Shown in pieces: positions 972 through 21,920 of a stretch of 64,000 nucleotides of DNA. Source of the stretch: a virus (taxonomy: Duplodnaviria > Caudoviricetes). The stretch's first letter is position 1, and each line of letters opens with the position of its first letter. The stretch spans positions 128,001 to 192,000 of the IMG/VR virus record IMGVR_UViG_3300021256_001754; one strand, given 5' to 3'. Below the pieces are notes generated by a model. It saw only the letters and a program-made list of their open reading frames with translations. It had not been told where the DNA came from and ran no database searches. Both the position numbers and the translations under genes were made by a program.

Positions 972-1002
972 ATATTTTATCAAACCATATTGCTAATACC
1001 AT

Positions 1003-1266
1003 TTTGATGAACTACATTACTCATCTGTCGCTAGAGCGTTAGGAAATTTTGGTGAAGCATCGTTAACTGACAACCAAGGAATAAATTTGCTGTATAGAGA
1101 CGTTATAGTACTAAATGTAAGTACAAATGATAGTCTAAACACGATATGCATACCTTATTACTATGGTAGTGGAAGTTGGGGAGTTCAAGTCAAGCAATTA
1201 GTAGGAGGAGATTATGCGACAGGTACAATTACTATAGATACATTATATACAAATAGAAAGTGGTAG
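1003..1266 (+). pseudogene. Start-less cassette 1: tail-fibre-tip-like C-terminal domain (87 codons)
   Basis: In-frame TAA at 994-996, then TAC CAT TTT GAT GAA CTA; reads FDELHYSSVARALGNFGEASL...CIPYYYGSGSWGVQVKQLVGGDYATGTITIDTLYTNRKW*; beta-rich; no ATG. An internal TTG at 1087 has a weak AAGGA upstream. Confidence 0.6.
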
Positions 1267-1280
1267 AACTAATAAAATTT

Positions 1281-1308
1281 TAGGACTAGGGAATTATCCC
1301 TAGTCCTA
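1281..1308. terminator. Bidirectional terminator hairpin
   Basis: TAGGACTAGGGA-atta-TCCCTAGTCCTA between convergent frames. Confidence 0.8.
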
Positions 1309-1311
1309 TTT

Positions 1312-1596
1312 TTATTCATTTGTAATTGGCTGATTCCAAATTTTTTCTAAATCTTTTATTCCAAACGGTATTTTGATAGAATTATTTTCTTTATAATCTG
1401 TCACATAAATATTGTCATCTTCAACTTTAAGTTTAGGTGGTTTATCGTCCAAACATAAAGATTTTAATTCCTCTACAGATATACCTGTATTTATGGAAAC
1501 GCAAGACTGATCTTTTGGAATAATATGAAGAGTTGGTAAACATGGATTCATAACAGATCTTATAGAGTCAGTCAAAATAATATCGCTTAATTTCAT
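1312..1596 (-). CDS. Hypothetical protein
   Basis: 94 aa ORF, translationally coupled to the upstream gene; AGGAGG RBS. Confidence 0.75.
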   Translation of the reverse strand: MKLSDIILTDSIRSVMNPCLPTLHIIPKDQSCVSINTGISVEELKSLCLDDKPPKLKVEDDNIYVTDYKENNSIKIPFGIKDLEKIWNQPITNE

Positions 1597-2054
1597 TATA
1601 TAATCCTCCTTATAGCTTTACTTTCTTTATTTAACAGTTGAAATCCTAAGATTTTTTCTATTTCAAAAATATTATGAGTATCTTTCAATTTACCTGCTAC
1701 AAATTTACCTGCTACAAATAAGCCAGCTCTGCAATTATCAAGTTCATTATTACCGAAATAACTATTATACATATTAGCTGTAATTTTAACGGTAACAAAT
1801 TCGGTGTTAAAAAATAATACTTCTCCTATTATATTCTCAATAGGAACCACACCGTAATCTGGTGAATCTACAAATAGAGGCATTCCTCCATTTTTAACAA
1901 CTTCTTTTGTATATTCAGATTTCATAGCTTTTATAAATGAATCTTTATCCATTATGATTCCATTTATATTTGGCTCACCAAGCTTTGTTATTAGTGGTAT
2001 TTTTATAATATTTTCTTCATCTTCTGTTTGCTTTACTTTTTCTTCATTGTCCAT
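1596..2054 (-). CDS. Prohead-protease-fold paralog 1 (catalytic motifs absent)
   Basis: EPNINGIIMDKDSF...MPLFVDSP aligns by eye to EKNRNGRIYPKSEL...RAELGHP of 35399..36217; tandem paralog. Confidence 0.6.
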   Translation of the reverse strand: MDNEEKVKQTEDEENIIKIPLITKLGEPNINGIIMDKDSFIKAMKSEYTKEVVKNGGMPLFVDSPDYGVVPIENIIGEVLFFNTEFVTVKITANMYNSYFGNNELDNCRAGLFVAGKFVAGKLKDTHNIFEIEKILGFQLLNKESKAIRRII

Positions 2055-2476
2055 TATATAATCCTCCTTATAGGTATACCATATTTTTTAATTGTCAACT
2101 GAAACCCTAAGATTTTTTCTATTTCAAAAATATTAGGAACATCTCTCATTTTACCTTCTACAAGCAAACCAGCTCCATAATAATCACGTTTAGGATTGTC
2201 ATGATATGTATTATATGTATCAGCTGACATTTTAACAGTAACAGATTCAGTGTCAAAAAACAATACTTCTCCTATTGTATTCTCAATAACCGCAGTATAG
2301 TCATTTATAGGAAAATCTACAAATAGAGGCATTGTTCCATTTTTAATAGCTTCTTTTGTAAATTCGGAGTCCATAGCTTTTATAAATGAATCTCTGTCGA
2401 ATATAACTCCATTTATATTTGGTTCACCCGGTTTTGATATTAGTGGTATTTTTACAATCTTTTCTTCATTGTCCAT
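2054..2476 (-). CDS. Prohead-protease-fold paralog 2
   Basis: Close paralog of 1596..2054 (GEPNING, MPLFVD, NIFEIEKILGFQL). Confidence 0.6.
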   Translation of the reverse strand: MDNEEKIVKIPLISKPGEPNINGVIFDRDSFIKAMDSEFTKEAIKNGTMPLFVDFPINDYTAVIENTIGEVLFFDTESVTVKMSADTYNTYHDNPKRDYYGAGLLVEGKMRDVPNIFEIEKILGFQLTIKKYGIPIRRII

Positions 2477-2913
2477 TATATAATCTTCCTTACAATAGAT
2501 TTACCTTCTTTTATAATTATCAACTGAAATCCTAAGATCTTTTCTATTTCAAAAATATTATGAGCATCTTTCATTTTATGTGCTTTTGTAAATAAATCAG
2601 CTCTGTAATAATTAAGCTCATGATCGCATAAATAAGTATTATACATATCAGTTGTCATTTTAACAGTAATAGATTCAGTATCAAAAGATATCACTTTTCC
2701 TATTGTATTTTCAACAGGAATAGTATTATTTATAGGAGAATCTACAAATAGAGGTATTCCTCCATTTTTATCAGCTACTTGTCTATCCATAGCTTTTATA
2801 AATGAATCTTTATCGATTATATATCCATTTATATTTGGCTCGCCAATTAACGGTATTGGTAATTTTACAATAGTATCATTACCAATTTGTTTTACTTTTT
2901 CTTCATTGTTCAT
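2476..2913 (-). CDS. Prohead-protease-fold paralog 3
   Basis: Same conserved blocks as paralogs 1 and 2. Confidence 0.6.
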   Translation of the reverse strand: MNNEEKVKQIGNDTIVKLPIPLIGEPNINGYIIDKDSFIKAMDRQVADKNGGIPLFVDSPINNTIPVENTIGKVISFDTESITVKMTTDMYNTYLCDHELNYYRADLFTKAHKMKDAHNIFEIEKILGFQLIIIKEGKSIVRKII

Positions 2914-2981
2914 ATTTACCTCATTAAAGATTTAGCTAGAAATTCAACATATTCTTCTTCTCGTGAAGTGACAGCAGAATA

Positions 2982-3416
2982 TTATACAGTTTTACGATTT
3001 TTAGCAGCTATACCAGTTAATAGCTGAAATTCGATAATATTTTTAATAGCAAAGGTATTTACATTTTTATCCTGAGATCCAACAAATTCACCAAAGCCTA
3101 AAATGCCAGCTTTTATTTTAGAAGTATTTTCAAAAGGTTTTATATATAGATTATATTTATCTTCTGTCGTCTCTACTTTAATATGATCTTCTGTCCACCC
3201 TACAACTTTTCCTATCCAATCTTCTATAGGAACATATTTCTGTTTAAAATAATTACTATTAAGAGTTAGAGGAAGACCGATATTAGTTTTAAATACTTCT
3301 TTTATACGTTCAGATTCCATAACCTTTTTATATGATTCCGGTTCGAAGAATATACCATTCACATTGACATCTTTACCAGGTCTAGTAATAGGTATATACG
3401 TAATCTTCTTATCCAT
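2982..3416 (-). CDS. Prohead-protease-fold paralog 4 (more divergent)
   Basis: NVNGIFF, LPL, IGKV, AGILGFG and IIEFQLL blocks. Confidence 0.55.
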   Translation of the reverse strand: MDKKITYIPITRPGKDVNVNGIFFEPESYKKVMESERIKEVFKTNIGLPLTLNSNYFKQKYVPIEDWIGKVVGWTEDHIKVETTEDKYNLYIKPFENTSKIKAGILGFGEFVGSQDKNVNTFAIKNIIEFQLLTGIAAKNRKTV

Positions 3417-3426
3417 AAACTACCTC

Positions 3427-3774
3427 TCATTCTTTATTCTCGTCACGCATAAACTTACCATTATTACATTCTTTAAAATAATCTACACAATTTTCGTATC
3501 CATAGTTCTTAGGATCTATCTCTTTATCAGCTACACAAGATCCACCATAATGAATAGCTCCAGAACTAGAAGCTCTAAAGTTAGAACACTTTCCACAATA
3601 GTGTTTTTGGTCGTATTCTTTTATATCACGTTTTAAACTTGTTAAACATTCTCTACAAAGAGGTATAGTTATACTGTCTATTTCTAAAACAGCTATAGTA
3701 GTATTACCACAGCTATCATAATCTTTATCATCGTAATCCGGTCCTCTAAAACGTAGCATATAAACCTCCTCCAA
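3427..3774 (-). CDS. Cys-rich hypothetical protein (possible Zn-binding)
   Basis: CRECL and CGKC motifs plus further Cys residues. Confidence 0.65.
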   Translation of the reverse strand: MEEVYMLRFRGPDYDDKDYDSCGNTTIAVLEIDSITIPLCRECLTSLKRDIKEYDQKHYCGKCSNFRASSSGAIHYGGSCVADKEIDPKNYGYENCVDYFKECNNGKFMRDENKE

Positions 3775-3786
3775 TTTAATTTATAT

Positions 3787-4113
3787 TTACTCCTTAGATC
3801 TCTTTTCTATAACATAGGATTCTATTTTATCGTCATATTTTATATGAAGAAAATCCATCAGTTTTGCCATACATTCTTCACATAATTCAAAATACGGCTC
3901 AACTATTGGAATCTCCTCATCCAAAGCATGATTATAAGGACCATTTAAGCTGCGTATCTTGACAGCAGATATATAATTAGATTCTATAGGAGTACCAGAT
4001 TCAGTATCCCAAATATAAATACCTTCATCTGTTCTAGTTGCTTTGCTTCCACAATGTCTACAAATTAATCTTGCCATATAATTCACCTCATTCTTCTTTC
4101 TATCTTTCTTCAT
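3787..4113 (-). CDS. Hypothetical Zn-ribbon protein
   Basis: CRHC ... CEEC; the true start is probably the internal MARLIC with a GAGGTG RBS. Confidence 0.65.
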   Translation of the reverse strand: MKKDRKKNEVNYMARLICRHCGSKATRTDEGIYIWDTESGTPIESNYISAVKIRSLNGPYNHALDEEIPIVEPYFELCEECMAKLMDFLHIKYDDKIESYVIEKRSKE

Positions 4114-4579
4114 AAGTTTGACCTAATTTAAAGATAATATCAACTAGAGGTCTATGCTGAGCATCATATAACTGATATCCGGATATACTATAGACATCTG
4201 ATACGCAATCTAAACCTTCCATATGTTCAATATATGCTCCAAATACTCCAGCAGAACATTTGTCCTCATTAGTTTCAATATATTCAAGTATCTCTTTATC
4301 TAATCTAGGATCAAGACGTACTTTGATATATTCTTTATCTACACAATATACAACTCCTAATTTATATTTCCTTATAAATTCTGCATCCAAAGAATCGCAA
4401 TTATTAGCATATAAATATACAAATCCTCTATTTACAATTTCTATAAACTTATTATCAGATATAAGTTTTTCATAACTAGATCTAGAAATAATTCTACCAG
4501 TAAAAGGATTCATAGTATCTAAAAATTTTGAAGTAGGAATTGTTACCAAATGATATTCCTTCTTGTCATCTTCATTCAT
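4100..4579 (-). CDS. Prohead-protease-fold paralog 5 (second subfamily)
   Basis: MNPFTGRIIS, LGVV, AGVFG and GYQL blocks; paralog of 5889..6440. Confidence 0.5.
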   Translation of the reverse strand: MNEDDKKEYHLVTIPTSKFLDTMNPFTGRIISRSSYEKLISDNKFIEIVNRGFVYLYANNCDSLDAEFIRKYKLGVVYCVDKEYIKVRLDPRLDKEILEYIETNEDKCSAGVFGAYIEHMEGLDCVSDVYSISGYQLYDAQHRPLVDIIFKLGQTYEER

Positions 4580-4601
4580 AATATTTTACTCCAATAATCT
4601 T

Positions 4602-4925
4602 TTATAATTCAACTCTAAGATTAACTATAGCTTTAGATAAATATTCTTTATATTCGTCTTCTGAAATTTCTTCGATATATCCGTTATAACAAACAGAATT
4701 GACTATATCTATAGATGTATCTTTTCCCATCTTACATCTAAATTTAAGTTCTTTGCCACATCTAGGGCATTTTATTATAGCATCAGATGGAGTATATGGG
4801 GTTCTATAATTAATAATATCGAAATCGTCTTTAAATATAGAAACAAACGAACAGCAATCTGTATGCTTTATTTTATAAAATTTATAAGTTTCTTTTTTGT
4901 CATACAATTCTACGATAGCCCGCAT
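4602..4925 (-). CDS. Hypothetical Zn-ribbon protein
   Basis: Start MRAIVEL at 4925 with AGGAGGTG RBS; CC...CPRCG motif. Confidence 0.7.
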   Translation of the reverse strand: MRAIVELYDKKETYKFYKIKHTDCCSFVSIFKDDFDIINYRTPYTPSDAIIKCPRCGKELKFRCKMGKDTSIDIVNSVCYNGYIEEISEDEYKEYLSKAIVNLRVEL

Positions 4926-5121
4926 AATAATCACCTCCTGTATAAATAATTTTAACTGAAAGTTGTATAGATAATAAAAATTCATTATCGTAAAAATAAG
5001 AATAAATGGAATAGCTTTATGCTACTCCTTTTTATTTTTGTAAATTAAATAAATAATAGAGGTGGAAGAAATTCCACCTCTTTATTTTATAGAAGATCCA
5101 TTGATATAGATTTGAGTGTCT

Positions 5122-5457
5122 ACTGATGACATACAATATTATAGTGTTCATACATATAACAGCGAATACGGTGGAAGCATTCATGCTTTTAGAACAATGA
5201 AAATGGTGACATTATATGGTGTAGATTTGGGAAGCACATCAGCTCCACCCGAAAACACAGATTGGCTTATTCAAACATTAGATGAAATATATCGTCCTAT
5301 ATTTTCTGTACATTGTTTAGGTTTAACTTCAGAAATAATTTCATATGATCATTTGATAACTGTAACCATAAACACAGATGGTGTTATTTCGACATATACA
5401 TATGATATATATTCTAGAATTGTTTTGAGTTTCTGTGCATCATATATCGTAAATTAA
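5122..5457 (+). pseudogene. Start-less cassette 2: tail-fibre/RBP C-terminal domain
   Basis: In-frame TGA at 5113, then GTG TCT ACT GAT GAC ATA; the GTG has no RBS; contains LIQTLDEIYRP...INTDGVI...FCASYIVN*, a pattern typical of fibre tips; an A15 run follows. Confidence 0.65.
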
Positions 5458-5507
5458 AAAAAAAAAAAAAGAAGAACAAAAATAAAATACAACAGTTCTT
5501 AAATATA

Positions 5508-5547
5508 AAAATATTCCCAGTAGGTGTTATCCTACTGGGAATATTTT
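5508..5547. terminator. Bidirectional terminator of the repeated CCCAGTAGG/CCTACTGGG family
   Basis: 17-bp stem; the same core recurs at 16901, 32019, 44915 and 57806. Confidence 0.85.
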
Positions 5548-5872
5548 AATGTAATTTGACAAGTGTACCTGCTCTATAACCACTGTCTGTAATTTCTATA
5601 CCTTCAGAATTATCATCTTTATCAAATTCCCAAAATACCATTTTATATTCGAGATTTTTATAAAAACCTAACTGTTCCGGAATTTTATCCACTATGGTAT
5701 TAATTACAGACTTTTCTCCAGCATAATCTAAGTACTTTTTATCACCTTTTATAATTGGATCTGTGTTATAAATACTCTCATAGAAATCTTTCTTCTCAGA
5801 TTCAGGTAATTTAGTTGCGTCAAGAAATAATCTATGATCTTCACACAGCCATAGATAACTATCACTTTCCAT
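5546..5872 (-). CDS. Hypothetical protein
   Basis: 108 aa ORF with GGAG RBS. Confidence 0.7.
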   Translation of the reverse strand: MESDSYLWLCEDHRLFLDATKLPESEKKDFYESIYNTDPIIKGDKKYLDYAGEKSVINTIVDKIPEQLGFYKNLEYKMVFWEFDKDDNSEGIEITDSGYRAGTLVKLH

Positions 5873-5888
5873 GTTTCTCCATTATTTA

Positions 5889-6440
5889 TCAATTATCGTT
5901 CTTATCATTTGATTCGTATTCTTTATATCTCTTGCATCTTTCTTCAAAAGTTTCACCTAATTTGAATATCAGATCTATAGGAGGTCTATACTGTTCATCG
6001 TATAACTGATATCCAAGTATAAAAGTAACGTCTACTTTCGGATCTTCTCCCATAGGATTCGTAGAAGCACCAAATATACCAGCATAAGAATTAGCAGCAT
6101 TCTTCTTGATATATTCAATAATCTCTTTATCTAAATGCTGGCATAAACAAACAGAAATCTCTGATTCATTAGCCTCATATACTATTCCTAATCTATACTT
6201 AGCTATAAAATCAGAACTGATAAAACAATCCTTAACAGTACCATCCTCATTATAAGGAGAGCACTTATTTATATACAGTCCAATATTTCCAGCATTCATA
6301 TTGCTAATAAATTCATCTGACTTAATATACTCCAGATAACTATGCTTGGAAACAATGCATCCGGTATAAGGATTCATTTTGTCAAATAATTTTGATGTAG
6401 GTATTTTTACAATAAAGTCTTCAATTGGTTTTTCGTTCAT
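5889..6440 (-). CDS. Prohead-protease-fold paralog 6 (second subfamily)
   Basis: Paralog of 4100..4579 (IPTSK, MNPYTG, AGIFGA, GYQLYD); AAGGAG RBS. Confidence 0.5.
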   Translation of the reverse strand: MNEKPIEDFIVKIPTSKLFDKMNPYTGCIVSKHSYLEYIKSDEFISNMNAGNIGLYINKCSPYNEDGTVKDCFISSDFIAKYRLGIVYEANESEISVCLCQHLDKEIIEYIKKNAANSYAGIFGASTNPMGEDPKVDVTFILGYQLYDEQYRPPIDLIFKLGETFEERCKRYKEYESNDKNDN

Positions 6441-6511
6441 AATTTTATTTCTCCTTAATTGTTAATTATTATAGAATTGTGAAAATGATACTATACTTTT
6501 ACAAATAAGTT

Positions 6512-6664
6512 TTTGATGAAATTTTCAATTTTAAATATGAAAAAATTGCTCCTAATGTGTGGGGATATTATGTCGAGTTTCCCAATGGTTCTGGATTGGC
6601 TATATCAGATTATGGTAAGGTAATGTATAAAAATTTGGTACATAGCGAATGGATAGATGTTTGA
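6512..6664 (+). pseudogene. Start-less cassette 3: short fibre-tip/knob-like C-terminal domain (50 codons)
   Basis: TAA GTT TTT GAT GAA ATT; reads FDEIFNFKYEKIAPNVWGYYVEFPNGSGLAISDYGKVMYKNLVHSEWIDV*. Confidence 0.5.
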
Positions 6665-6790
6665 TTGATAAATTTGTTTAGTTTTATAATATATTCTTCT
6701 ACATTTTTATAGATATAACATTATGGTAATATACACATATAGAGATAAAAATATCTTTATAAAATCTAAATTACCGAAAGGAGATTTATT

Positions 6791-7003
6791 ATGCCAAACC
6801 CAAACATCAAAGTAAATCCTGAAGACATTGTTACAGGTAAGATCAAAACAAATGCAGAGCCGCCTAAGGTTGATATGCCGGGTTCAGAAAATCCTGATAT
6901 CGTTACAAATAAGGTGAAGGTTAAGGCTACAAACGAGCCGGATATGAGCGCTACCGATACAACAGTTGATCCTAACGCTCCTGGATACGCTCCAAAGCAG
7001 TAA
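6791..7003 (+). CDS. Small Pro-rich protein with an internal repeat
   Basis: AAAGGAG RBS; codon usage like the highly expressed genes; DIVTxKxK occurs twice; AACA-N6-TA at 6717. Confidence 0.8.
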   Translation: MPNPNIKVNPEDIVTGKIKTNAEPPKVDMPGSENPDIVTNKVKVKATNEPDMSATDTTVDPNAPGYAPKQ

Positions 7004-7085
7004 AACATAAGCAGCGCATTTCTATACACATTATTGATCCAAAAAAAAAATAGACTCTTAGGCTAAAATGCCTAAGAGCTTATTT

Positions 7086-7442
7086 TTATTTGTTATTAAT
7101 TTTATTAACAAAATTTCCTAATAAAGAGCAGCGTGTTCTACCTATATACTTAAGCATTTCAATTTTATCTATACAATATCTACCAAGTCTAATTGATATA
7201 ATTAATACTATATAAGCAAATACATGTGGCACTATAAATGATTCTATAGATAAAATGATATCGCTAGTAATCACATATTTAATTAATATAGATACTATAC
7301 TTATAACATACCCTACAGTTGCTAACGGCATCAAATCGATTGATAATTTAAGCATCCATATATAACGTTTTAATTGTTTTAACTCCTTTAAAGACAAATA
7401 GTGCATATATTTAGTATCATAGTTTTTATTATTCGTATTCAT
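7086..7442 (-). CDS. Two-TM membrane protein (paralog A)
   Basis: Two hydrophobic segments; paralog of 7469..7849. Confidence 0.75.
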   Translation of the reverse strand: MNTNNKNYDTKYMHYLSLKELKQLKRYIWMLKLSIDLMPLATVGYVISIVSILIKYVITSDIILSIESFIVPHVFAYIVLIISIRLGRYCIDKIEMLKYIGRTRCSLLGNFVNKINNK

Positions 7443-7468
7443 ATTTCTCCTTTATATAAATTATTTTT

Positions 7469-7849
7469 TTATTTACTATTATTTTCTCTCAAATATCTTG
7501 TTTTAGCTATATCTTCAATTGCCTTAATTTTATCCATACTATATCTATCAACTTTAAATGATATAAGTAATACTATAAGAGCAAATGATTGTGGTACTAT
7601 AAATGATTGTATAGATAAAGTGATATCATTAGTAATTATATATTTAATTACTATAAACGCTGTAGCTAAAATATATCCTATAATTGATATCAATGATAAT
7701 CTGTTTGATAATTCAAGTATACGCAAATAATGTATTAAACGTTCTATCTCCTCTAAAGATAATTGGTCCAAAAGTTGGTCTAGATCCTTTGTTAAAGATG
7801 GTTCCGTAAATTTAGTATCATGATTTTTGTAGTTCATATTCATATTCAT
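7469..7849 (-). CDS. Two-TM membrane protein (paralog B)
   Basis: Shares IKYxITxDIxLSIxSFIVP with paralog A; GGAGGAG RBS. Confidence 0.75.
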   Translation of the reverse strand: MNMNMNYKNHDTKFTEPSLTKDLDQLLDQLSLEEIERLIHYLRILELSNRLSLISIIGYILATAFIVIKYIITNDITLSIQSFIVPQSFALIVLLISFKVDRYSMDKIKAIEDIAKTRYLRENNSK

Positions 7850-7934
7850 ATTTCTCCTCCAGATAAAATTATTTTATTGTTTTCGTATACATTTTTATAG
7901 TATATATTTATAAATAATAATTCTCTTTTAAACT

Positions 7935-8266
7935 ACTGATGATTTAAAAGTTCAAGAATTATCAGTTTCTCTGAATCCCATAAATTCACGTGTAACTATA
8001 AACGAGAGTATTTTTATAAAATTAGCAAGTTATGCATTGCTGAAATAATATTTACAACAAATCAAGCAATATCAGGAATTGTAGTTAATCCTATTTCATT
8101 ATTTGATAGATCTCCTACACCAATTTCGAATACTCATATTACCGCAACTTTTCGTAATGGTGAAAGTGCTCAATGTGTTCTTCTTACGAATGGTAACTTT
8201 ATTTCGCAAAGTACTATATCTAGTGGTACAACATCTTATGTACATTATGTATACATATTGTCGTAA
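7935..8266 (+). pseudogene. Start-less cassette 4: fibre-tip-like domain with a frameshift near 8010
   Basis: TAA ACT ACT GAT GAT TTA; reads TDDLKVQELSVSLNPINSRVTINES, then in a shifted frame FYKISKLCIAEIIFTTNQAISG...GTTSYVHYVYILS*; A10-GAAG follows. Confidence 0.6.
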
Positions 8267-8319
8267 AAAAAAAAGAAGTTTCTAATTAACTGATTAACTC
8301 CTAGGGATAAAACTCCCTA

Positions 8320-8356
8320 GGAGTATTATTTAACATGTATCAAAACTAAAAAATAA
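8320..8356 (+). repeat. 37-bp direct repeat, copy 1 (copy 2 at 10720..10756)
   Basis: GGAGTATTATTTAACA(TG/CA)TATCAAAACTAAAAAATAA, 2 mismatches. Confidence 0.85.
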
Positions 8357-8424
8357 AAATATCTTTAAAATATATACTATATTCTTGAAGTATTAAATCT
8401 ATATCAGTAAAAGGAGTAATAAAA

Positions 8425-9006
8425 ATGGGAAATGATACTTTAAACATCCTGATTGTTGTTGATATGCAGAACGATTTTACTTATGGTTCTTTAGCAAATC
8501 AATCAACAGTTGATACTATTCCTGCAATCGTAGAAAAGGTAGAGAAATATCTGAAAGATGATAATGGTAAAATCATATTTACAAAAGATATGCATTTTGA
8601 CTACTATCTCGAATCAGAAGAAGGAAAACATCTTCCTATAAAACATTGTATATTTGGAACAGAAGGTTGGGATCTTGTAGATCCTTTAAAACGTATAGTG
8701 GATAATAATACTATAAAAGATAAGATTATTCAAGTTCCTAAATCTTCATTTGGTGCAATGAAGCTTAAAGATGCTATATATCGTCCTGGTACACATTTTA
8801 TTTATAGCAAAACAAATATAGAGATAGTTGGTACTTGTACTAGCTTATGTGTTATAGCAAATGCATTTATGGCTAAAGCTGCAGCACCTGATGCACATAT
8901 AATTATCGATGCAAAGTGTTGTTCAGATGTAAACGAAGAGAATCATAATAATGCTTTGAAAGTTATGAAGAATGCTCATATGGAAATTATTAATTGGGAG
9001 AAATGA
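8425..9006 (+). CDS. pncA: Nicotinamidase/isochorismatase-family cysteine hydrolase
   Basis: VVDMQNDF, the DMH and HC metal-binding motifs, K-SSF and GTCTSLCV catalytic Cys motif. Confidence 0.8.
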   Translation: MGNDTLNILIVVDMQNDFTYGSLANQSTVDTIPAIVEKVEKYLKDDNGKIIFTKDMHFDYYLESEEGKHLPIKHCIFGTEGWDLVDPLKRIVDNNTIKDKIIQVPKSSFGAMKLKDAIYRPGTHFIYSKTNIEIVGTCTSLCVIANAFMAKAAAPDAHIIIDAKCCSDVNEENHNNALKVMKNAHMEIINWEK

Positions 9007-9008
9007 TT

Positions 9009-9518
9009 ATGGCACGATTGAAAGATAAAATAAATAATTTATACAACGAGGTTAAAGATAATATAACCACAGAGGATGAAATGATAACCTTTATCAATGA
9101 CTTTACTGATAACTTATCTAAATTGTTCTATATTATAGACAATACTCTTGCTGAAAGTAGTATAGTTAATCCTTTTTATTATCCAGATCCGGCAATAAAT
9201 AACGAAAATAAAGGATTTAGGATGTATTATTACAACAAGTGTATTACTGAAATTCTTTTTGGTAAACTCAATTTCACTAAATTACATATCTTCTCTGTAG
9301 CAATATACAGAAATGCTGATAAGTATTTTCTTGAGATTCGTCAAGATAAACGTCCTGGACATAAAGAAGATGATAAACGCTTTTTTATAGTTGAAGGTGA
9401 AAAATATGAAAAGGCTGATAGTAATATAGATCTACATACAGTATATAATATTCTAAATACAACTTATATGAAATTAAGTATAGAAGCAGATATTAAAATA
9501 ATCGAATTAAAAAAATAA
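9009..9518 (+). CDS. Hypothetical protein
   Basis: ORF 8994..9518; probable start at MARLK. Confidence 0.7.
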   Translation: MARLKDKINNLYNEVKDNITTEDEMITFINDFTDNLSKLFYIIDNTLAESSIVNPFYYPDPAINNENKGFRMYYYNKCITEILFGKLNFTKLHIFSVAIYRNADKYFLEIRQDKRPGHKEDDKRFFIVEGEKYEKADSNIDLHTVYNILNTTYMKLSIEADIKIIELKK

Positions 9519-9539
9519 TAAACAGAAAGGTGAATCACA

Positions 9540-10652
9540 ATGAAAGAAACTGATACCGATTATTCTATAAAGTTTTATAAGAGATTTTATTACAATAAAA
9601 ATTCTATATCATTTATGAGATATCCGGATTATATGTATATGGCTGAAATAAAAAATCCATATTCATCTTTATGTGGAAACAGGGTATTTGAAATCGAAGA
9701 GCTTACAAAATCACGTGATGTTAATGGAACTTGGAGTATAGATATCCTCTTTAGATCTAATCCTAAATTATTAGATTATGATTATAGTATGGTAAAGGAA
9801 ATATTTGATTATGATAGAAATTGTTTGGCATTTTACGTTAGCAATAACTTTAGTAATTCATATTGGAGAGATCGTATATTTACCATTATAGGAGATAGTT
9901 TAAAATTAATTAATACCACTCTTAGATGTACCAGAATTGACGATTCAGATGAATATTATACTTTAAGTGGTATAATTGTACCAGAGGTTGTAGAAGATAT
10001 CGATAGAAGTTCAATAATCCCTAATCAGATGATCGATATGACTTTGCCTGCTCTTCTTCCTAAGCCTATAACTAAGGATGAAAAATGGCCTACAAAACCA
10101 TCTACTGCCGAGATGGATAAAGAAGATATAGTGTCAAAAGCAATAGATGAAATGACGTTATATCCGGAGAAAATAGTAGATTATATTCATTTTAATAATA
10201 CGACCACAACGAGGCTATTTCGTGATATAATAATTAAAAGTCTTAAAAAGGTATATGGAGATGATTATAAGTTAGGTTATAAATCTCAGATGGATTCTAC
10301 AAGAAAATTAATGGAGGATAAAATGAAATTAACAAGAGTTGGAATGATGTGTTTGGAACTGAAGGATGTAAAGTTCTCTGGAGATAAAACTATCGCGTTC
10401 TGGGAAGATGGTGAAAAGACTATTGTTACTATGCAGGACGATGAAAAGGAGTATGATCCCGAGAAGGCTATTATGGCTTGTTATATGAAGAGATTGATTG
10501 ATATTCAGAAACAGGTTACTAACCATAATATTTCTATAAAGAAGATCTTTGATAAGTATCTTGCTAAGTATGAGAAAGAGAAACCGAAGATTGAAGCTCA
10601 GATTCAGAAGATTAAGCAGAGAAAGGCTAATAAAAAAGAGAATACAAAATAA
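9540..10652 (+). CDS. Hypothetical phage protein
   Basis: The C-terminal block VKFSGDKTIAFWEDGEKTIV...YDPEKAIMA resembles a small domain common in Firmicutes phages. Confidence 0.7.
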   Translation: MKETDTDYSIKFYKRFYYNKNSISFMRYPDYMYMAEIKNPYSSLCGNRVFEIEELTKSRDVNGTWSIDILFRSNPKLLDYDYSMVKEIFDYDRNCLAFYVSNNFSNSYWRDRIFTIIGDSLKLINTTLRCTRIDDSDEYYTLSGIIVPEVVEDIDRSSIIPNQMIDMTLPALLPKPITKDEKWPTKPSTAEMDKEDIVSKAIDEMTLYPEKIVDYIHFNNTTTTRLFRDIIIKSLKKVYGDDYKLGYKSQMDSTRKLMEDKMKLTRVGMMCLELKDVKFSGDKTIAFWEDGEKTIVTMQDDEKEYDPEKAIMACYMKRLIDIQKQVTNHNISIKKIFDKYLAKYEKEKPKIEAQIQKIKQRKANKKENTK

Positions 10653-10719
10653 GCTTCTCAAGAACTGTGAATAATAAATTAATCCCTGGGTGATTCCCAG
10701 GGATTTTTCTTTTATGAAA

Positions 10720-10756
10720 GGAGTATTATTTAACACATATCAAAACTAAAAAATAA
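10720..10756 (+). repeat. 37-bp direct repeat, copy 2
   Basis: Matches 8320..8356, exactly 2400 bp downstream. Confidence 0.85.
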
Positions 10757-10777
10757 TAAATAGAAAGGTAATTCAGA

Positions 10778-11014
10778 ATGAAAGAAAACGATAATATAAT
10801 CGAATTAGAGAAAGTTAAACAGGAGAAAGAAAAGAAACGTATTAATGAGCTTACAGAAAATTTTGTAGCAAATGATTTAAACAAATTTCTGGAAACTCTT
10901 CCTGATACATACAGTGAATTCGAAAAGGATGTATCATTAGTATCCTATGTATTTACAACTGGTTATCTTTATGGAAAAGATGATGCAAAGAAAGAAATAG
11001 GTGAATCTAAATAG
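10778..11014 (+). CDS. Hypothetical protein (tandem paralog)
   Basis: Close paralog of 11029..11256. Confidence 0.8.
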   Translation: MKENDNIIELEKVKQEKEKKRINELTENFVANDLNKFLETLPDTYSEFEKDVSLVSYVFTTGYLYGKDDAKKEIGESK

Positions 11015-11028
11015 AAAGGTGGTTCATA

Positions 11029-11256
11029 ATGAACGAAAACGATAACGTAATTGAATTAGAGAAAATTAAACAGGAGAAAGAAAAGAAACGTATTAAAGAG
11101 CTTGTAGAGCATTTTATAATAGAACAATTGGATGATTTTCTAAAAACTCTTCCAGATACATATAATACAATCGAAAGAGATATATCAATATCATCTTGTG
11201 CATTTACAGCCGGTTATCTTTATGGAAAAGAAGATGCAAAGAAAGAAATCGAATAA
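11029..11256 (+). CDS. Hypothetical protein (tandem paralog)
   Basis: Shares ENDNxIELEKxKQEKEKKRI and GYLYGKxDAKKEI with 10778..11014. Confidence 0.8.
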   Translation: MNENDNVIELEKIKQEKEKKRIKELVEHFIIEQLDDFLKTLPDTYNTIERDISISSCAFTAGYLYGKEDAKKEIE

Positions 11257-11267
11257 GGAGATAATAT

Positions 11268-11849
11268 ATGGATAAATGGGGTCGTAAGAATTCAGATTCA
11301 AATAATTTTAGAGTTGTACTTTTTGTATCTAGAAATAAAGATAACAAAACACCAGCAAATATTGTAAAAGGTTTTAAAGAAAGGAAAGAATCTTTTTTAA
11401 CCTATAAAGATACAGATGAGTTGATGGAAGATTTTAAAAACTTTGCTAGTAAAGGTGTTCCTGGAGAGATAAGCAGATTCTATATATCTGTAAATGCAAG
11501 AAATCTTACAAGCATTAAAAGAGCAGTATTGCATGCATTGATAGACGATGATTCAAATAAATTTATTGCAAATCCTCTTCCTTATATTGCAGGTATAGCA
11601 GCTTTAAAAGAAAATGCTTTGACTAGGAAATGGATGCTTGATATAGATACAAAAGATGAATCTGTATTAAATCAGATAAAAGAACTCATATCTAAAAATA
11701 CTGTAATATCTGAAGAAATAGAAACTCCAAATGGTTATCATATTATAGTAGAAAATGGATTTGATACTAGAGAATTATTGAATAAATTCCGCGATGTATC
11801 TCTAAAAAGAGATGATCTAAAATTCGTTTCTATAGCTACGAAAGTATAA
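11268..11849 (+). CDS. Phage protein with AEP (primase-polymerase)-like motifs
   Basis: WMLDID (DxD) and ETPNGYHII (GxH). Confidence 0.5.
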   Translation: MDKWGRKNSDSNNFRVVLFVSRNKDNKTPANIVKGFKERKESFLTYKDTDELMEDFKNFASKGVPGEISRFYISVNARNLTSIKRAVLHALIDDDSNKFIANPLPYIAGIAALKENALTRKWMLDIDTKDESVLNQIKELISKNTVISEEIETPNGYHIIVENGFDTRELLNKFRDVSLKRDDLKFVSIATKV

Positions 11850-11869
11850 TATACAAAAAATAAATAGCC

Positions 11870-12200
11870 CTAGGGACAATAAATCCCTAGGGTTATTTAC
11901 ATGTCTATGTTTCCTAAGTCTTTATTATTAAAGGAGAAACTTCAATTTTTTAACTTAGGAATTTTGAGAGGTGTCAATATATCGATATTACGACACTAAT
12001 GTAGAAGATTCTATACCGACATATTGAGAGCTCCTAATCTGATTCGAACAGATAACCTACTGATTACAAATCAGTTGCTCTTGCCAGTTGAGCTATAGAA
12101 GCTTAAGTCTTAATCTTAGTAGGAGGGAAGATTAAGACTTATGGTTGATATACACAATATATCGATAGGCGCAGCTTTGTATATACCAACTTCCAAGGAT
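11870..12200 (-). ncRNA. Probable structured tRNA-containing transcript with extra hairpins
   Basis: TACA-N6-TA at 12201-12212 (minus); hairpins at 12144-12190, 12104-12141, 11971-11996 and 11911-11961; terminator near 11866-11894. Confidence 0.5.
12029..12102 (-). tRNA. tRNA-Thr(UGU)
   Basis: GCTTCTA/TAGGAGC acceptor stem, D arm GCTC-AACTGGCAA-GAGC, anticodon arm ACTGA-TTTGTAA-TCAGT, TTCGAAT T-loop; no encoded CCA. Confidence 0.93.
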
Positions 12201-12226
12201 TACTTATATGTAGATAATACATATTT

Positions 12227-12784
12227 TTATTTTTTCATATTGCTCTTTAATAATACAAGTAAAGCTTTCTTTTGTGTATCTGTATATCTAAATATATTTT
12301 CTTTCATACTTCTAAGTACAAAATTAAAATTGTTTACATCCTCATCTGTATTATCAGATAATAAATATCTTAACGATATATCAAATCTATAAGATATTTT
12401 CTCTAATATATCACTATCAGGAATTAAATCTCCAGTAAGAAGCAGTACTAAAGTATGTTCTGGTATATCGGTATCTTTTGATAATTGCTTTAGTGTTAAT
12501 TTATCTCTTTCTATTAATCTGAATAGATTAGAGCTAAAAGCAAATTTCTTACATCTATCACTAATACGTACATCGCTTAATATATAATCTGTAGGTACAT
12601 CGAATAGATCCGCTATCTTTTTCAATAAAATTACACATTTATAAGAACCGTTTATAAATTTATAAACGGTTGGTTGTTTGGTTTTTGTAAGTTCAGCGAG
12701 TTGTTGTATTGATATTCCTTTACGATCTAACAATTCATCCAAATTATCACACATTGTTTCTTCTATCTTATGATAATCTTTCAT
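12227..12784 (-). CDS. Tandem XRE-family HTH transcriptional regulator
   Basis: Two HTH blocks (SIQQLAELTKTKQPTVYKF...IADLFDVPTDYIL and TLKQLSKDTDIPEHTL...FDISLRYLL). Confidence 0.8.
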   Translation of the reverse strand: MKDYHKIEETMCDNLDELLDRKGISIQQLAELTKTKQPTVYKFINGSYKCVILLKKIADLFDVPTDYILSDVRISDRCKKFAFSSNLFRLIERDKLTLKQLSKDTDIPEHTLVLLLTGDLIPDSDILEKISYRFDISLRYLLSDNTDEDVNNFNFVLRSMKENIFRYTDTQKKALLVLLKSNMKK

Positions 12785-12802
12785 ATGATACTCCTATATA
12801 AA

Positions 12803-13267
12803 TTACCATTTAGTAGAATCTATATCATTCCATATAACCTTATTATTATATTTCTTACCAAGTTCTATAGAATGAGATGTACCTTTACCTTTGCTCTGTT
12901 TATCTTTATAACAAAGAACTACTCTATGAGGATATTTAGCTATAAATTGATGCATTTCTTCATTTCTTATAAAACCAGCACTTGCACCAAATTTCTTCCA
13001 ATTAGCCGGAAATACTATTAAACGATATCCATTTCTTCTAGCATAATCCTCTGCAATAGAATCTACACCAGTAGCCCCACCTGATACTATAACGATATTG
13101 TATCTATCATTAACAACCGATTCTATATCTCTAGTTATCATTTTAGATATTTCATTGTATGCTTTTTCGTATTGCTCTGAATATCTAGGCGAATCTTTAG
13201 TTACTGTTCTAGATCCTGCAATTAAAACCATAAAAGTTGTCTCTGTTGTCATATTGTCGTTGTTCAT
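12803..13267 (-). CDS. SLOG-superfamily protein (YspA/DUF2493-like)
   Basis: IAGSR, VSGGATGVD, PANWKKFGASAGFIRNEEM and GTSHSI motifs. Confidence 0.8.
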   Translation of the reverse strand: MNNDNMTTETTFMVLIAGSRTVTKDSPRYSEQYEKAYNEISKMITRDIESVVNDRYNIVIVSGGATGVDSIAEDYARRNGYRLIVFPANWKKFGASAGFIRNEEMHQFIAKYPHRVVLCYKDKQSKGKGTSHSIELGKKYNNKVIWNDIDSTKW

Positions 13268-13305
13268 TTTATTTCTCCTTTAGATTTATATATTAAAAAA
13301 GATAG

Positions 13306-13677
13306 TTATATTTTACTATCTTCTTTTTGAAGATAAGTTTTATTTATTGCTATTGCATCGTCACCGATATGTCTATACATAAAATCAAATTTATCTATAC
13401 GTAATCTTGATGTTTCACCATTATCAAATCTTACATCAGCATAGTATACAATAACACCATCAGATCTAATAGATTTACCAATTTGTGTTATCACACAATG
13501 CTGACATTCTTTAATTTCATCTATACCATCATAATCAGATAACGATGTTATACGGTTTATGCTATACAGTATGACTATAAGTGATAAAACTATAGCAACA
13601 CATCCGGTAACGAGTTTAAAATACATTAAAACTAATCTCTTCTTTTCCATATTCAATTGTACCCCTTCTAATGACAT
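13306..13677 (-). CDS. Membrane-anchored hypothetical protein
   Basis: N-terminal hydrophobic helix. Confidence 0.6.
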   Translation of the reverse strand: MSLEGVQLNMEKKRLVLMYFKLVTGCVAIVLSLIVILYSINRITSLSDYDGIDEIKECQHCVITQIGKSIRSDGVIVYYADVRFDNGETSRLRIDKFDFMYRHIGDDAIAINKTYLQKEDSKI

Positions 13678-13768
13678 TTAAGCCTAAATTAATAAAATGT
13701 GATTCTATCTGTATATAATTATTATTATCTTAATATAATATTAATAAATGATAAAGGAGCATAATTAT

Positions 13769-13939
13769 ATGGAAACTAGAGAATATTATAGATACATTGG
13801 TAGATATAGATATTTTGATAGAAAGATAATCGATTATTCTAATGGATTGATAATTCGTTGTTTATCTGATAGAGAATTAAAAAATAGACAGAATAATATG
13901 TGTGAAATATATGAGAAAATAAAAGTAAACAATAGCTAA
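13769..13939 (+). CDS. Small hypothetical protein
   Basis: AAAGGAG RBS ahead of METREY. Confidence 0.55.
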   Translation: METREYYRYIGRYRYFDRKIIDYSNGLIIRCLSDRELKNRQNNMCEIYEKIKVNNS

Positions 13940-13979
13940 AACTAACTTATAATATTAGTATAATTTAGGAGGTTGATAT

Positions 13980-14288
13980 ATGAATATTGAAGTTGTTAGA
14001 AGAAAAGGTGAAATTATACCAACAAGAATGGTTATCAGAGTAGATGGAGTTGAGGTTATCTATAATCCGTTACCAGATAAATTTGGATATAATTTTTGTA
14101 TGCCATCTATAAAGGATGAGAAGAAAGCTATAGAAATTGCTGAGGGTATAGCAACAGTTATGGAGAATCAGTCTTACGATCATGGTGCTAGTTGGAGAAG
14201 AACTTCTGTAGAGATTGTACCACAGAACGAAAGATATAAGATTGGTACTATTGTAAGAGTATTGTTTAGAGTGAGAGATGCTGGTTGA
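13980..14288 (+). CDS. Hypothetical protein
   Basis: AGGAGG RBS, 102 aa. Confidence 0.75.
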   Translation: MNIEVVRRKGEIIPTRMVIRVDGVEVIYNPLPDKFGYNFCMPSIKDEKKAIEIAEGIATVMENQSYDHGASWRRTSVEIVPQNERYKIGTIVRVLFRVRDAG

Positions 14289-14351
14289 TATTTTATTCTC
14301 TATGGTTAAAATACCGTAGAGAATATTTATTGTATAGTAAGCTCTTATATA

Positions 14352-14385
14352 AGATACCCCCTTAATCTGATAATGGTGGTATATG
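14352..14385 (-). repeat. Palindromic ATACC...GGGGTAT motif, copy A (inverted)
   Basis: Reverse complement CATATACCACCATTATCAGATTAAGGGGGTATCT; the 3' 18 bp are identical to copy B. Confidence 0.8.
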
Positions 14386-14437
14386 ATAGCTTCAGAAATA
14401 TACACTAAGATTCTTTTTTTTTTTTCGATATATATTT

Positions 14438-15184
14438 AATGATGAGCTTACTGGCAATAGCACAGCTGGTTATCATAATGCTAAATATAGGAATAAAGAT
14501 TTAGGTACGATAACAGCTGGTAATAGAGATGCTTGGGTTCAAACCTATGTAAATGGTGGTAATTTTGAAGCTTTTGTTGGTGACGAAGTTACTATACAAG
14601 ATGGTGTTTATAATGCTAAATGGTTGGTAGCAGGATGTGATACTGAGTTGAATAAAGGAGATACCGCTTTAACAACACATCATGTTAGCTTGATTCCAAA
14701 AACACATTTATTTAGTGCTAGAATGAATAGCTCTAATACAACAGCAGGTGGTGTAAAGGGATCAGAAATGGTCACATCTACATTGCCAGCTTTAGCAACA
14801 ACTCTTAAATCTGCTCTTGGTAATAGACTTCTTGAGAGAAGAGTTTTGTACAGTAAGGCTGTTGATACATCAGCAGTTTCACAGTATTCTAAATGGACAG
14901 GTATGGCTTCCGATTGGGAATGGTTTAGCGCTTACTGTAGTTTGTTATCAGAAGTACAAGTTTATGGCTCTATGGTGTTTGGTGGTCCATACGATATAGG
15001 AGAGGCTTCACAGCAGTTACCGATATTTAAATTTATCAATTTTATAAATTACAGTCGTTCCCTCTTCTGGCTTCGTGGTGTCGCGAGCTCTACGGATTTC
15101 TGTCGTGCCAGCGGCAACGGCATTGCCGACTACACCAGCGCTTCCGCTTCCAATGGTGTTCGCCCGCTCATAACTGTTGGATGA
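14438..15184 (+). pseudogene. Start-less cassette 5: DGR target (C-type-lectin-like fibre tip with variable region)
   Basis: Frame open from TAG 14387 with no start codon until an RBS-less TTG at 14624; begins AAT GAT GAG CTT; reads NDELTGNSTAGYHNAKYRNKDLG...MNSSNTTAGG...LLSEVQVYG...FWLR...ASASNGVRP. Confidence 0.75.
15056..15170 (+). other. DGR variable region (VR)
   Basis: Abrupt GC-rich stretch with NNC/NNT codons (AGC GGC AAC GGC ATT GCC GAC TAC ACC AGC) ending in GVRP, as expected from adenine mutagenesis of an AAC-rich template. Confidence 0.75.
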
Positions 15185-15270
15185 TGAATGACAGCGTAGC
15201 TTAATGCGGAGCTGGAAATTCATCATCTGCACATATTTATTTTGATAACTTATAGATGAGAAATAAATAT

Positions 15271-21763: not shown

Positions 21764-21805
21764 AACAAAACCTCCTTTTGTAATTATAAAGATGTAAAAC
21801 CACGA

Positions 21806-21920
21806 TAAAAATACCATGAGGGCGATGCATCCCTCATGGTACCAAAACGAGAAGATCGGTAAATGAAAAGAAACCATATATAGCATAAGTTTTATAGGAG
21901 GACCTCACACTATATAATTT
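21806..21920 (-). ncRNA. Candidate sRNA with an anti-SD (CCUCCU) hairpin loop
   Basis: AACA-N6-TA at 21920-21931; 13-bp stem 21877-21916 with three G-U pairs only on the minus strand; terminator hairpin 21812-21841. Confidence 0.55.

Follow-up and report, generated by a model that had tools for sequence, protein, structure and literature searches.

A genome-wide library of start-less receptor-binding tip cassettes that open at an in-frame TGATGA junction in a jumbo gut phage

The window analysed here is a 64,000-nucleotide stretch of phage DNA, corresponding to bases 128001-192000 of a single 249,585-bp contig (32% GC; IMG/VR virus record IMGVR_UViG_3300021256_001754, rated complete by CheckV), and the elements under study are five + strand frames, R1 to R5, each of which lacks a ribosome-binding site and a start codon and opens at the hexamer TGATGA. 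R1 to R5 form part of a genome-wide library in which at least 17 silent cassettes for receptor-binding tips are read in one phase from this hexamer. The same hexamer, in the same phase, separates stem from tip in expressed fibre genes, is purged from both strands of the genome, and is the exact site at which relatives have exchanged tips. We favour, at a probability of roughly 0.55, the reading that the silent tips are joined in frame to fibre stems by DNA-level joining at TGATGA. The initial annotation of the window had interpreted the five frames as a silent reservoir of tips that become fused to an expressed fibre, and our results support that interpretation.

Each of the five TGATGA hexamers reported by the initial annotation is present, is read as T-GAT-GAN, and is not preceded by a Shine-Dalgarno (SD) sequence; the accompanying listing of each as one open frame holds for R1, R2, R3, and R5 and fails for R4. 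Cassette R1 (window 1006-1266; hexamer 1005-1010) is beta-rich, comprises 86 codons plus TAG, and is bracketed by terminators at 948-971 and 1281-1308. Cassette R2 (5125-5457; hexamer 5124-5129) comprises 110 codons plus TAA and encodes a head domain like those of the receptor-binding proteins of the lactococcal phages p2 and TP901-1; an in-frame GTG, without an SD sequence, stands 3 codons ahead of its GAT. For both R1 and R2, the upstream terminator lies 33-42 nt from TGATGA. Cassette R3 (6514-6664; hexamer 6514-6519) comprises 49 codons plus TGA and, given this length, is possibly truncated. Cassette R4 begins (7937-8048; hexamer 7937-7942) with 36 codons ending in TAA (8046-8048) and continues in another phase (8048-8266) with 72 codons that are beta-rich and give a weak match to Big_15, followed by a + strand terminator at 8297-8324; because the frame stops and resumes in this manner, R4 is a broken cassette. 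Cassette R5 (14441-15184; hexamer 14440-14445) comprises 247 codons plus TGA and encodes a tip with a C-type-lectin-like end, in which a GC-rich tail (15040-15184) resembles the variable region of a diversity-generating retroelement (DGR) and is hypervariable relative to a sister strain.

An in-frame stop codon precedes the GAT by 3 codons in R1 (TAA) and R2 (TGA) and by 2 codons in R3 and R4 (TAA in both), as initially described for four of the frames, and by 17 codons in R5 (TAG). The first canonical in-frame start lies 27, 14, 33, and 61 codons inside the frame in R1, R3, R4, and R5, respectively. No similarity is detectable among the five peptides, in agreement with the initial description of mutually unrelated domains, and, beyond the weak Big_15 match of the R4 continuation, no family matches or relatives are detectable for R1, R3, and R4. 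Two decoding explanations were rejected. Because the upstream in-frame stops comprise TAA (three), TGA, and TAG, no single stop-codon reassignment opens the frames, and tRNA-based or special initiator decoding finds in this genome a single tRNA, a tRNA-Thr.

Counted genome-wide together with its complement, TGATGA is the most depleted of all hexamers, with 28 copies versus 163-265 expected under Markov models of orders 1-4 (ratio 0.12). When codon order is shuffled in the 188 long genes, sense copies are predicted to number 306 ± 19 and antisense copies 44 ± 6, versus 6 and 1 observed; control hexamers are normal in the same analysis, and AGATGA is enriched. All 18 one-mismatch neighbours of TGATGA show observed/expected ratios of 0.61-1.82, and therefore the avoidance is specific to the exact six bases and equal on both strands. 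The complement, TCATCA, is almost absent from the genome. Further depleted hexamers are GACGTC (12 vs. 38) and ATGTTA/TAACAT (62 vs. 182), which may reflect restriction avoidance.

The surviving 28 copies (26 on the + strand, 2 on the − strand) are placed in a distinctive manner: 17 form the 5' edge of start-less open frames of 36-247 codons. Sixteen of these cassette sites are on the + strand, namely the five in the window and those at genome positions 86435, 88692, 93114, 94014, 95680, 117112, 117966, 118298, 118643, 120936, and 126171; the sole − strand cassette is at 53007. The co-oriented cassettes are interspersed with ordinary genes over >57 kb, and a further cassette lies at 53 kb. Cassettes 117966, 118298, and 118643 form a tandem array (117966-119033) with spacers of 5-11 nt and one terminator, and spacers in arrays range overall from 5 to 23 nt. 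An SD core lies within 18 nt of the start in 0 of 16 cassettes, versus 120 of 171 long ORFs (open reading frames; 70%), and in cassette 117112 ATG, GTG, and TTG are all missing from the frame. Intrinsic terminators are strongly enriched (22 vs. 4.3 expected).

Six other copies of the hexamer are internal to longer open frames, likewise in the GAT phase, and one encodes an M-M dipeptide within a 640-aa gene. A 10-bp inverted repeat just 3' of R5, GATGATGAAT...ATTCATCATC (window 15180-15228), explains the copies at 15182 (+) and 15225 (−), neither of which is a cassette junction. Two copies have no long open frame downstream: that at 85543, which is a relic of a cassette start, and that at 52353 (+), which with 53007(−) makes an inverted site pair around the sole − strand cassette, 650 bp apart (L004 6353-7007).

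No homology blocks flank the cassettes on both sides. The 5' side shares the hexamer (6-11 nt in all) and a weak AAC(N2-4) stub, and the 3' boundaries, 5-40 nt past the tip stop and at the terminator, have no common motif. Homopolymers occur at several borders: A15 at the R2 stop (5456-5470), A10 at the R4 stop (8265-8274), T12 ahead of R5 (14414-14425), and a T-run ahead of cassette 88692 (L001 660-673).

The proposal that the peptides are tips of fibres or receptor-binding proteins (RBPs) is borne out by structure prediction and by homology. R2 is homologous over its full length to the C-termini of the fibre-like proteins P0148-P0153, and its AlphaFold2 model (predicted local distance difference test score, pLDDT, 84.6, from an alignment of only 5 sequences) has the beta-sandwich head fold: Foldseek matches it to p2/TP901-1 RBP heads with E values of 4e-6 to 1e-4 (2bse_A, E 4e-6, template-modelling (TM) score 0.69; 3da0, TM score 0.71-0.73). 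R5 has 77 homologues, many of which are proteins of 300-390 aa, and in many an N-terminal fibre stem ending ...LNND/LNDD stands immediately ahead of the R5-like domain; the R5 model (pLDDT 93) gives weak matches to Lcl-C and CLec folds. The 61 codons of R5 ahead of the first canonical start align with the stem-bearing homologues and differ from the sister strain by 5 synonymous and 2 non-synonymous changes. We conclude that coding in R5 really begins at the hexamer. Cassette 53007(−) shares 52.6% identity with the tip of P0027, a protein whose anchor part is 100% identical to that of this genome, and the cassette at 86435 gives a Gp53-like_C match.

The tail of R5 (15040-15228 region) differs from sister strain L021 at many codons, and its flanks are ~92% identical. 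No template repeat or second copy of the tail was found in the window or genome, and no reverse transcriptase (RT) was found (no RVT_1 match); the tail would then be a DGR target that is orphaned or served in trans, or else the remnant of a DGR lost recently.

A complete fibre gene with an in-frame TGATGA ahead of its tip, which the initial annotation had proposed to look for, is present at genome 85705-86412. This short fibre gene has an SD sequence and an ATG and encodes a 118-aa anchor followed by a 118-aa tip; the anchor is Mtd_N-like (a paralogue matches Mtd_N) and ends ...ITQLN-DD at TGATGA(86055), encoded CTAAATGATGA. A long fibre gene (82366-84660; 764 aa) carries TGATGA at codon 406 in the same phase. 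Six of six anchor junctions read CTAAATGATGA, with CTA for Leu, though CTA makes up 8.7% of Leu codons; this invariance points to a constraint at the nucleotide level. An SD-led gene at genome 95321-95641 (L001 7321-7641) encodes a 25-residue hydrophobic helix, an in-phase TGATGA, and an 81-residue tip-like domain, and the junction word is therefore also found behind a membrane-anchor-like module and not behind fibre stems alone. In the window, the N-terminus of a 776-aa ORF (26020-28350, −) is a paralogue of the fibre anchor (tblastn); an adjoining ORF of 1649 aa (16937-21886, −) is called as 1608 aa in the sister assembly, with a later start on identical DNA.

Comparison with relatives shows that tips are exchanged exactly at the junction. 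Among database homologues of the short fibre, 62 keep the anchor, and in 54 of the 62 the anchor ends in LNDD, LNDE, or a close variant, after which divergence is complete. Proteins P0008 and P0009 have anchors 99% and 96% identical to that of this genome and different tips. At the DNA level, L006 matches 85537-86065, stopping at the hexamer, carries a new tip, and then matches 93519-94020, stopping at TGATGA(94014); in L005, a match to 85536-86060 is followed by four additional TGATGA-led cassettes, after which homology resumes over 119058-120237. These matches place one anchor block beside three cassette neighbourhoods in three strains. The expectation that relatives would show tips swapped at the junction was thus confirmed, and one of the swapped tips shares 52% identity with a start-less cassette carried by this genome. 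On its left, the common anchor block is bounded by a T(G/A)ATGA site. The idea that the anchor is itself a mobile module between two TGATGA sites is weakened, in that the left site, 85543, is what remains of a 'DDID...' cassette start, and L011 has this start as well.

At R5, TGATGA is retained in sister strain L021, which additionally carries a cassette with no counterpart in this genome, and in the R5 homologue of L022 TGATGA lies four codons further upstream. In G001 (118.9 kb; 56% anchor identity), 29 of 29 TGATGA copies are on one strand, versus 104 copies expected, and 28 of the 29 stand at the opening of frames of 66-152 codons; in L012, a 20-kb locus of a 296-kb relative, 14 of 14 copies are on one strand, with arrays directly after the anchor gene. 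We conclude that the TGATGA cassette pattern is a clade trait. The more distant relatives L009-L011 show no TGATGA purge. In L011, from a Hadza gut phage contig of 254,760 bp, the anchor junction again reads CTAAATGATGA, and a small number of start-less cassettes occupy both strands; those at 2800-4200 and 14243 include an inverted paralogue of L011's own expressed tip, and the layout looks more like a classical inversion shufflon. DNA and protein searches of the phage GenBank collection and a viral-contig search with a flanking gene gave no matches, and the exact 24-nt anchor junction was not found in Joint Genome Institute (JGI) metagenome contigs.

According to the reading that we favour, the DNA to the left of one TGATGA, with promoter, start codon, and stem, would be joined to the DNA to the right of another, with the tip, and, since stems and tips have a common phase, every such left-to-right join would be in frame. 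The purge of the exact hexamer in both orientations argues for recognition of double-stranded DNA and for a process frequent enough to make stray sites harmful: stray direct sites would yield deletions, and stray inverted sites would yield inversions. A local inversion shufflon had been judged not to fit, and it does not, with 16 of 17 cassettes co-oriented; because the sites are direct repeats, joining would proceed by excision and integration, or by deletion in a subset of replicating genomes, and not by inversion. Joining would probably be a conservative site-specific reaction and would perhaps take place during infection rather than over evolutionary time alone.

A recombinase gene, which the initial annotation had suggested seeking, is present. 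The sole recognisable recombinase in the genome is one tyrosine recombinase with XerA/C/D-like architecture (genome 222219-223253), whose best profile scores are to XerA, XerC, and XerD, all below cut-offs, and which scores 74 bits versus a cut-off of 265 for TIGR02249. Searches of the genome for a serine recombinase, HNH, an N6/N4 methyltransferase, an IS200-type Y1 transposase, TnpB, an RT, an Rnl2-type RNA ligase, and RtcB were negative. Xer enzymes exchange strands across a 6-bp centre, which in a dif-like site is flanked by 11-bp arms. On this analogy, and on that of the XerD-like enzyme of the Rin shufflon (below), the XerD-like gene appears a reasonable candidate, and its product may act with TGATGA as a 6-bp crossover core.

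Several observations weigh against this reading, and the case for the XerD-like recombinase as the enzyme is weak. Across 22 sites of this genome and 28 of relatives, the sequences outside the hexamer have low information content, and with flanks barely conserved and no common fold a tyrosine recombinase is left without obvious binding arms. The gene lies 80-135 kb from the cassettes and is conserved across the whole phage family (57-80% identity), including a homologue, P0171, in the same 255,006-bp contig class as the anchor homologue P0053, whose 20-kb locus, L011, is unpurged. The gene would be at most a tentative marker of the TGATGA system, and in G001, of which half a genome is available, no copy was found. 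No rearranged molecule is apparent in independent assemblies: a 249,578-bp contig from human-gut sample ERZ12302812 (~200x coverage) matches the window at 100% identity over 20.5 kb, as does a Logan contig over 5.2 kb. Runs of the SRR8735xx-8736xx series also contain this phage. Recombination between direct repeats over 57 kb would delete ordinary genes, and isolated cassettes have no second site at the 3' end. Exchange is seen between strains whose DNA is 5-11% divergent, which makes it evidence on an evolutionary timescale and not within a population. Finally, R4 is broken and R3 is short.

A stronger form of the favoured reading, which we put forward tentatively, is that joining is programmed in infection in the manner of V(D)J recombination or integrons: any of ~20 dispersed co-oriented tips would be fused to a stem at the 6-bp word, the word would be purged since the machinery hits every copy, and the enzyme may not be the XerD-like protein. 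If so, one genome would give rise to a mixed fibre population and mixed host ranges, and the process would constitute a class of host-range diversification distinct from inversion shufflons and DGRs.

The strongest rival explanation, although we consider it improbable, is passive modular evolution that needs no dedicated switching machinery, in which the cassettes are stored or left-over tips, exchange results from rare ordinary or illegitimate recombination between co-infecting relatives, and the purge reflects host restriction (e.g. by a Type III-like enzyme that tolerates co-oriented sites). The 5-11% divergence of all strains showing exchange, the identity of independent assemblies over 20 kb, and the defects of R4 and R3 are as expected on this explanation; the strict co-orientation of sites is the outcome that Type III evasion would give, and the palindrome GACGTC is depleted as well. 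However, to evade a Type III enzyme a genome need not lose those sites that have the retained orientation, yet + strand sense copies of TGATGA are purged ~50-fold as well, and a Type II-like enzyme would still cut at least 20 retained sites. Mere relics, moreover, are hard to reconcile with 16 of 17 frames open for 49-247 codons in a 32% GC genome, with purifying selection on R5 upstream of any canonical start, and with relatives at ~56% anchor identity that keep 14-29 cassettes with the same hexamer and phase.

We regard as quite unlikely the explanation that each cassette is translated independently as a free small tip or adhesin, through non-canonical initiation at UGAUGA on leaderless mRNA or by phage-specific reinitiation in arrays. 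Cassettes and arrays are closed by + strand terminators, the arrays, with their 5-23 nt spacers, are operon-like, and in five cassettes a −10-like TATACT or TATATT lies exactly 2 nt ahead of TGATGA, which would place the transcription start inside the hexamer; the nearness of the upstream terminators of R1 and R2 to TGATGA points the same way, as does NTG-ATG, which is always present within the hexamer, with ATG-AYN-TAA in 9 of 17 cassettes. But the ATG of the hexamer is in the wrong phase, which closes after 2-35 codons, and the coding phase opens with GAT and offers no start codon. The lack of an SD core at all 16 starts and of any ATG, GTG, or TTG in cassette 117112 likewise speaks against independent translation, homologous database tips stand behind stems, and a signal read in mRNA leaves the 44-fold antisense purge unexplained.

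Joining at the level of RNA, whereby cassette transcripts would be attached to the stem mRNA at UGAUGA through cleavage and ligation, trans-splicing, or template switching, leaving the genome intact and producing many stem-tip proteins, is in our judgement very improbable. It reconciles direct, dispersed cassettes with intervening ordinary genes, the terminators make the cassettes look transcribed, and the common phase is exactly what in-frame RNA joining needs; but antisense copies are purged as strongly as sense copies, Rfam detected neither a ribozyme nor an intron in 104 kb, no common RNA structure is present at the sites, Rnl2-type RNA ligase and RtcB were not found in the genome, and the array spacers are too short for intron parts. 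We know of no phage precedent for RNA joining of this sort. A ribozyme or intron at the hexamer itself (hammerhead CUGAUGA or C-box) was rejected, in that Rfam over 104 kb returned the tRNA only, the preceding base varies, and no common fold is found. RT-mediated copying, raised initially as an alternative, is unlikely, and DGR copying was rejected, since the complete genome contains neither an RT nor a template repeat.

Five tRNA-like elements lie at genome 89.0-95.0 kb (L001 1016-1146, 1478-1600, 1797-1960, 6707-6890, and 6897-7020). All have the closing stem ATGTGG...CCACAT in common, as well as a 5' portion that ends in GTAGAC and a 3' portion with TTCAAATCC; the centre of each is variable (60-100 nt), and neither ARAGORN nor Rfam makes a call. 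Downstream of each is a small SD-led ORF with the repeated leader GGAGAGCATCAAGAAATG.

What a phage can infect is limited chiefly by its host range, and the known programmed changes of host range are inversion switches with two to six tips and point mutagenesis by DGRs. Here, a lytic-looking jumbo gut phage keeps ~20 complete alternative tips, and its relatives ~30 or more, all keyed to one 6-bp in-frame junction, and the cost of that junction word is visible genome-wide as a ~50-fold purge. The arrangement appears to be a novel means by which a virus can alter its binding targets. If DNA-level joining is active, it would represent a new recombination logic, with direct repeats, dispersed sites, and in-frame joins; it would supply a natural plug-and-play junction for swapping RBP heads; and it would have a signature recognisable in metagenomes, i.e. 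a purged hexamer that occurs on one strand only, at the start of start-less frames. Even if exchange occurs only in evolution, the recombination breakpoint of a fibre family is fixed to single-nucleotide precision. In the literature searched, we found no description of a tip library whose members are dispersed as direct repeats and whose junction word is purged.

Comparison with known systems distinguishes the library from each of them in at least one defining feature. Like the DGR of BPP-1 (Mtd), it concerns a phage RBP, with an Mtd_N-like anchor and, in R5, a hypervariable C-type-lectin-like tail that resembles a variable repeat (VR); unlike a DGR, it has no RT and no pair of template repeat (TR) and VR, and it exchanges whole domains rather than undergoing adenine-specific point changes. 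Like Borrelia vlsE/vls and Neisseria pilE/pilS, it has one or two expression sites and many silent, start-less open cassettes. In those systems, however, conversion is segmental and uses homology of tens of bp at either flank, whereas here 6-11 nt are common at the 5' side only and nothing is common at the 3' side. The sites also differ from dif-type Xer sites, in which conserved, partly palindromic arms surround the 6-bp centre.

With integrons, the library shares promoter-less, co-oriented cassettes in arrays, whose expression requires placement at one expression site, together with a Xer-related tyrosine recombinase and, on the favoured reading, excision and integration between direct sites. 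It differs in that the recombinase falls far below the IntI cut-off and in that no attC-like hairpins are present: ten junctions, when folded, gave no common structure (Z-scores −2.8 to +1.9), and, because TCATCA is almost absent, the core cannot pair. It differs further in that the join here is inside coding sequence and must stay in frame and in that many cassettes are solitary.

Of the systems described so far, the Rin shufflon of Bifidobacterium prophages comes closest, followed more loosely by Min/Gin/Cin, the R64 Rci shufflon, integrons, and silent cassettes of the vls/pilS type. In Rin, a constant RBP N-terminus is accompanied by several start-less variable C-terminal genes, directly ahead of each of which stands an 11-bp asymmetric rix repeat that is rare elsewhere; the enzyme is a XerD-like tyrosine recombinase without an arm-binding domain, and the variable parts are similar to the RBP head of TP901-1 (Mavrich et al., 2018; PMC6109161). 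The rix sites lie in inverted orientation in a cluster beside rin, and the switch is an inversion (PMC6109161). By contrast, 16 of the 17 cassettes here are direct repeats, the recombinase is not adjacent to them and no serine recombinase is present, and the conserved core is only 6 bp and is purged from both strands genome-wide. As in shufflons, however, a constant part and its site recur, with TGATGA in phase in the fibre genes and in the 17 start-less cassettes, and, as in Rin, the genome encodes a XerD-like recombinase and one of its cassettes, R2, has the TP901-1-type head fold.

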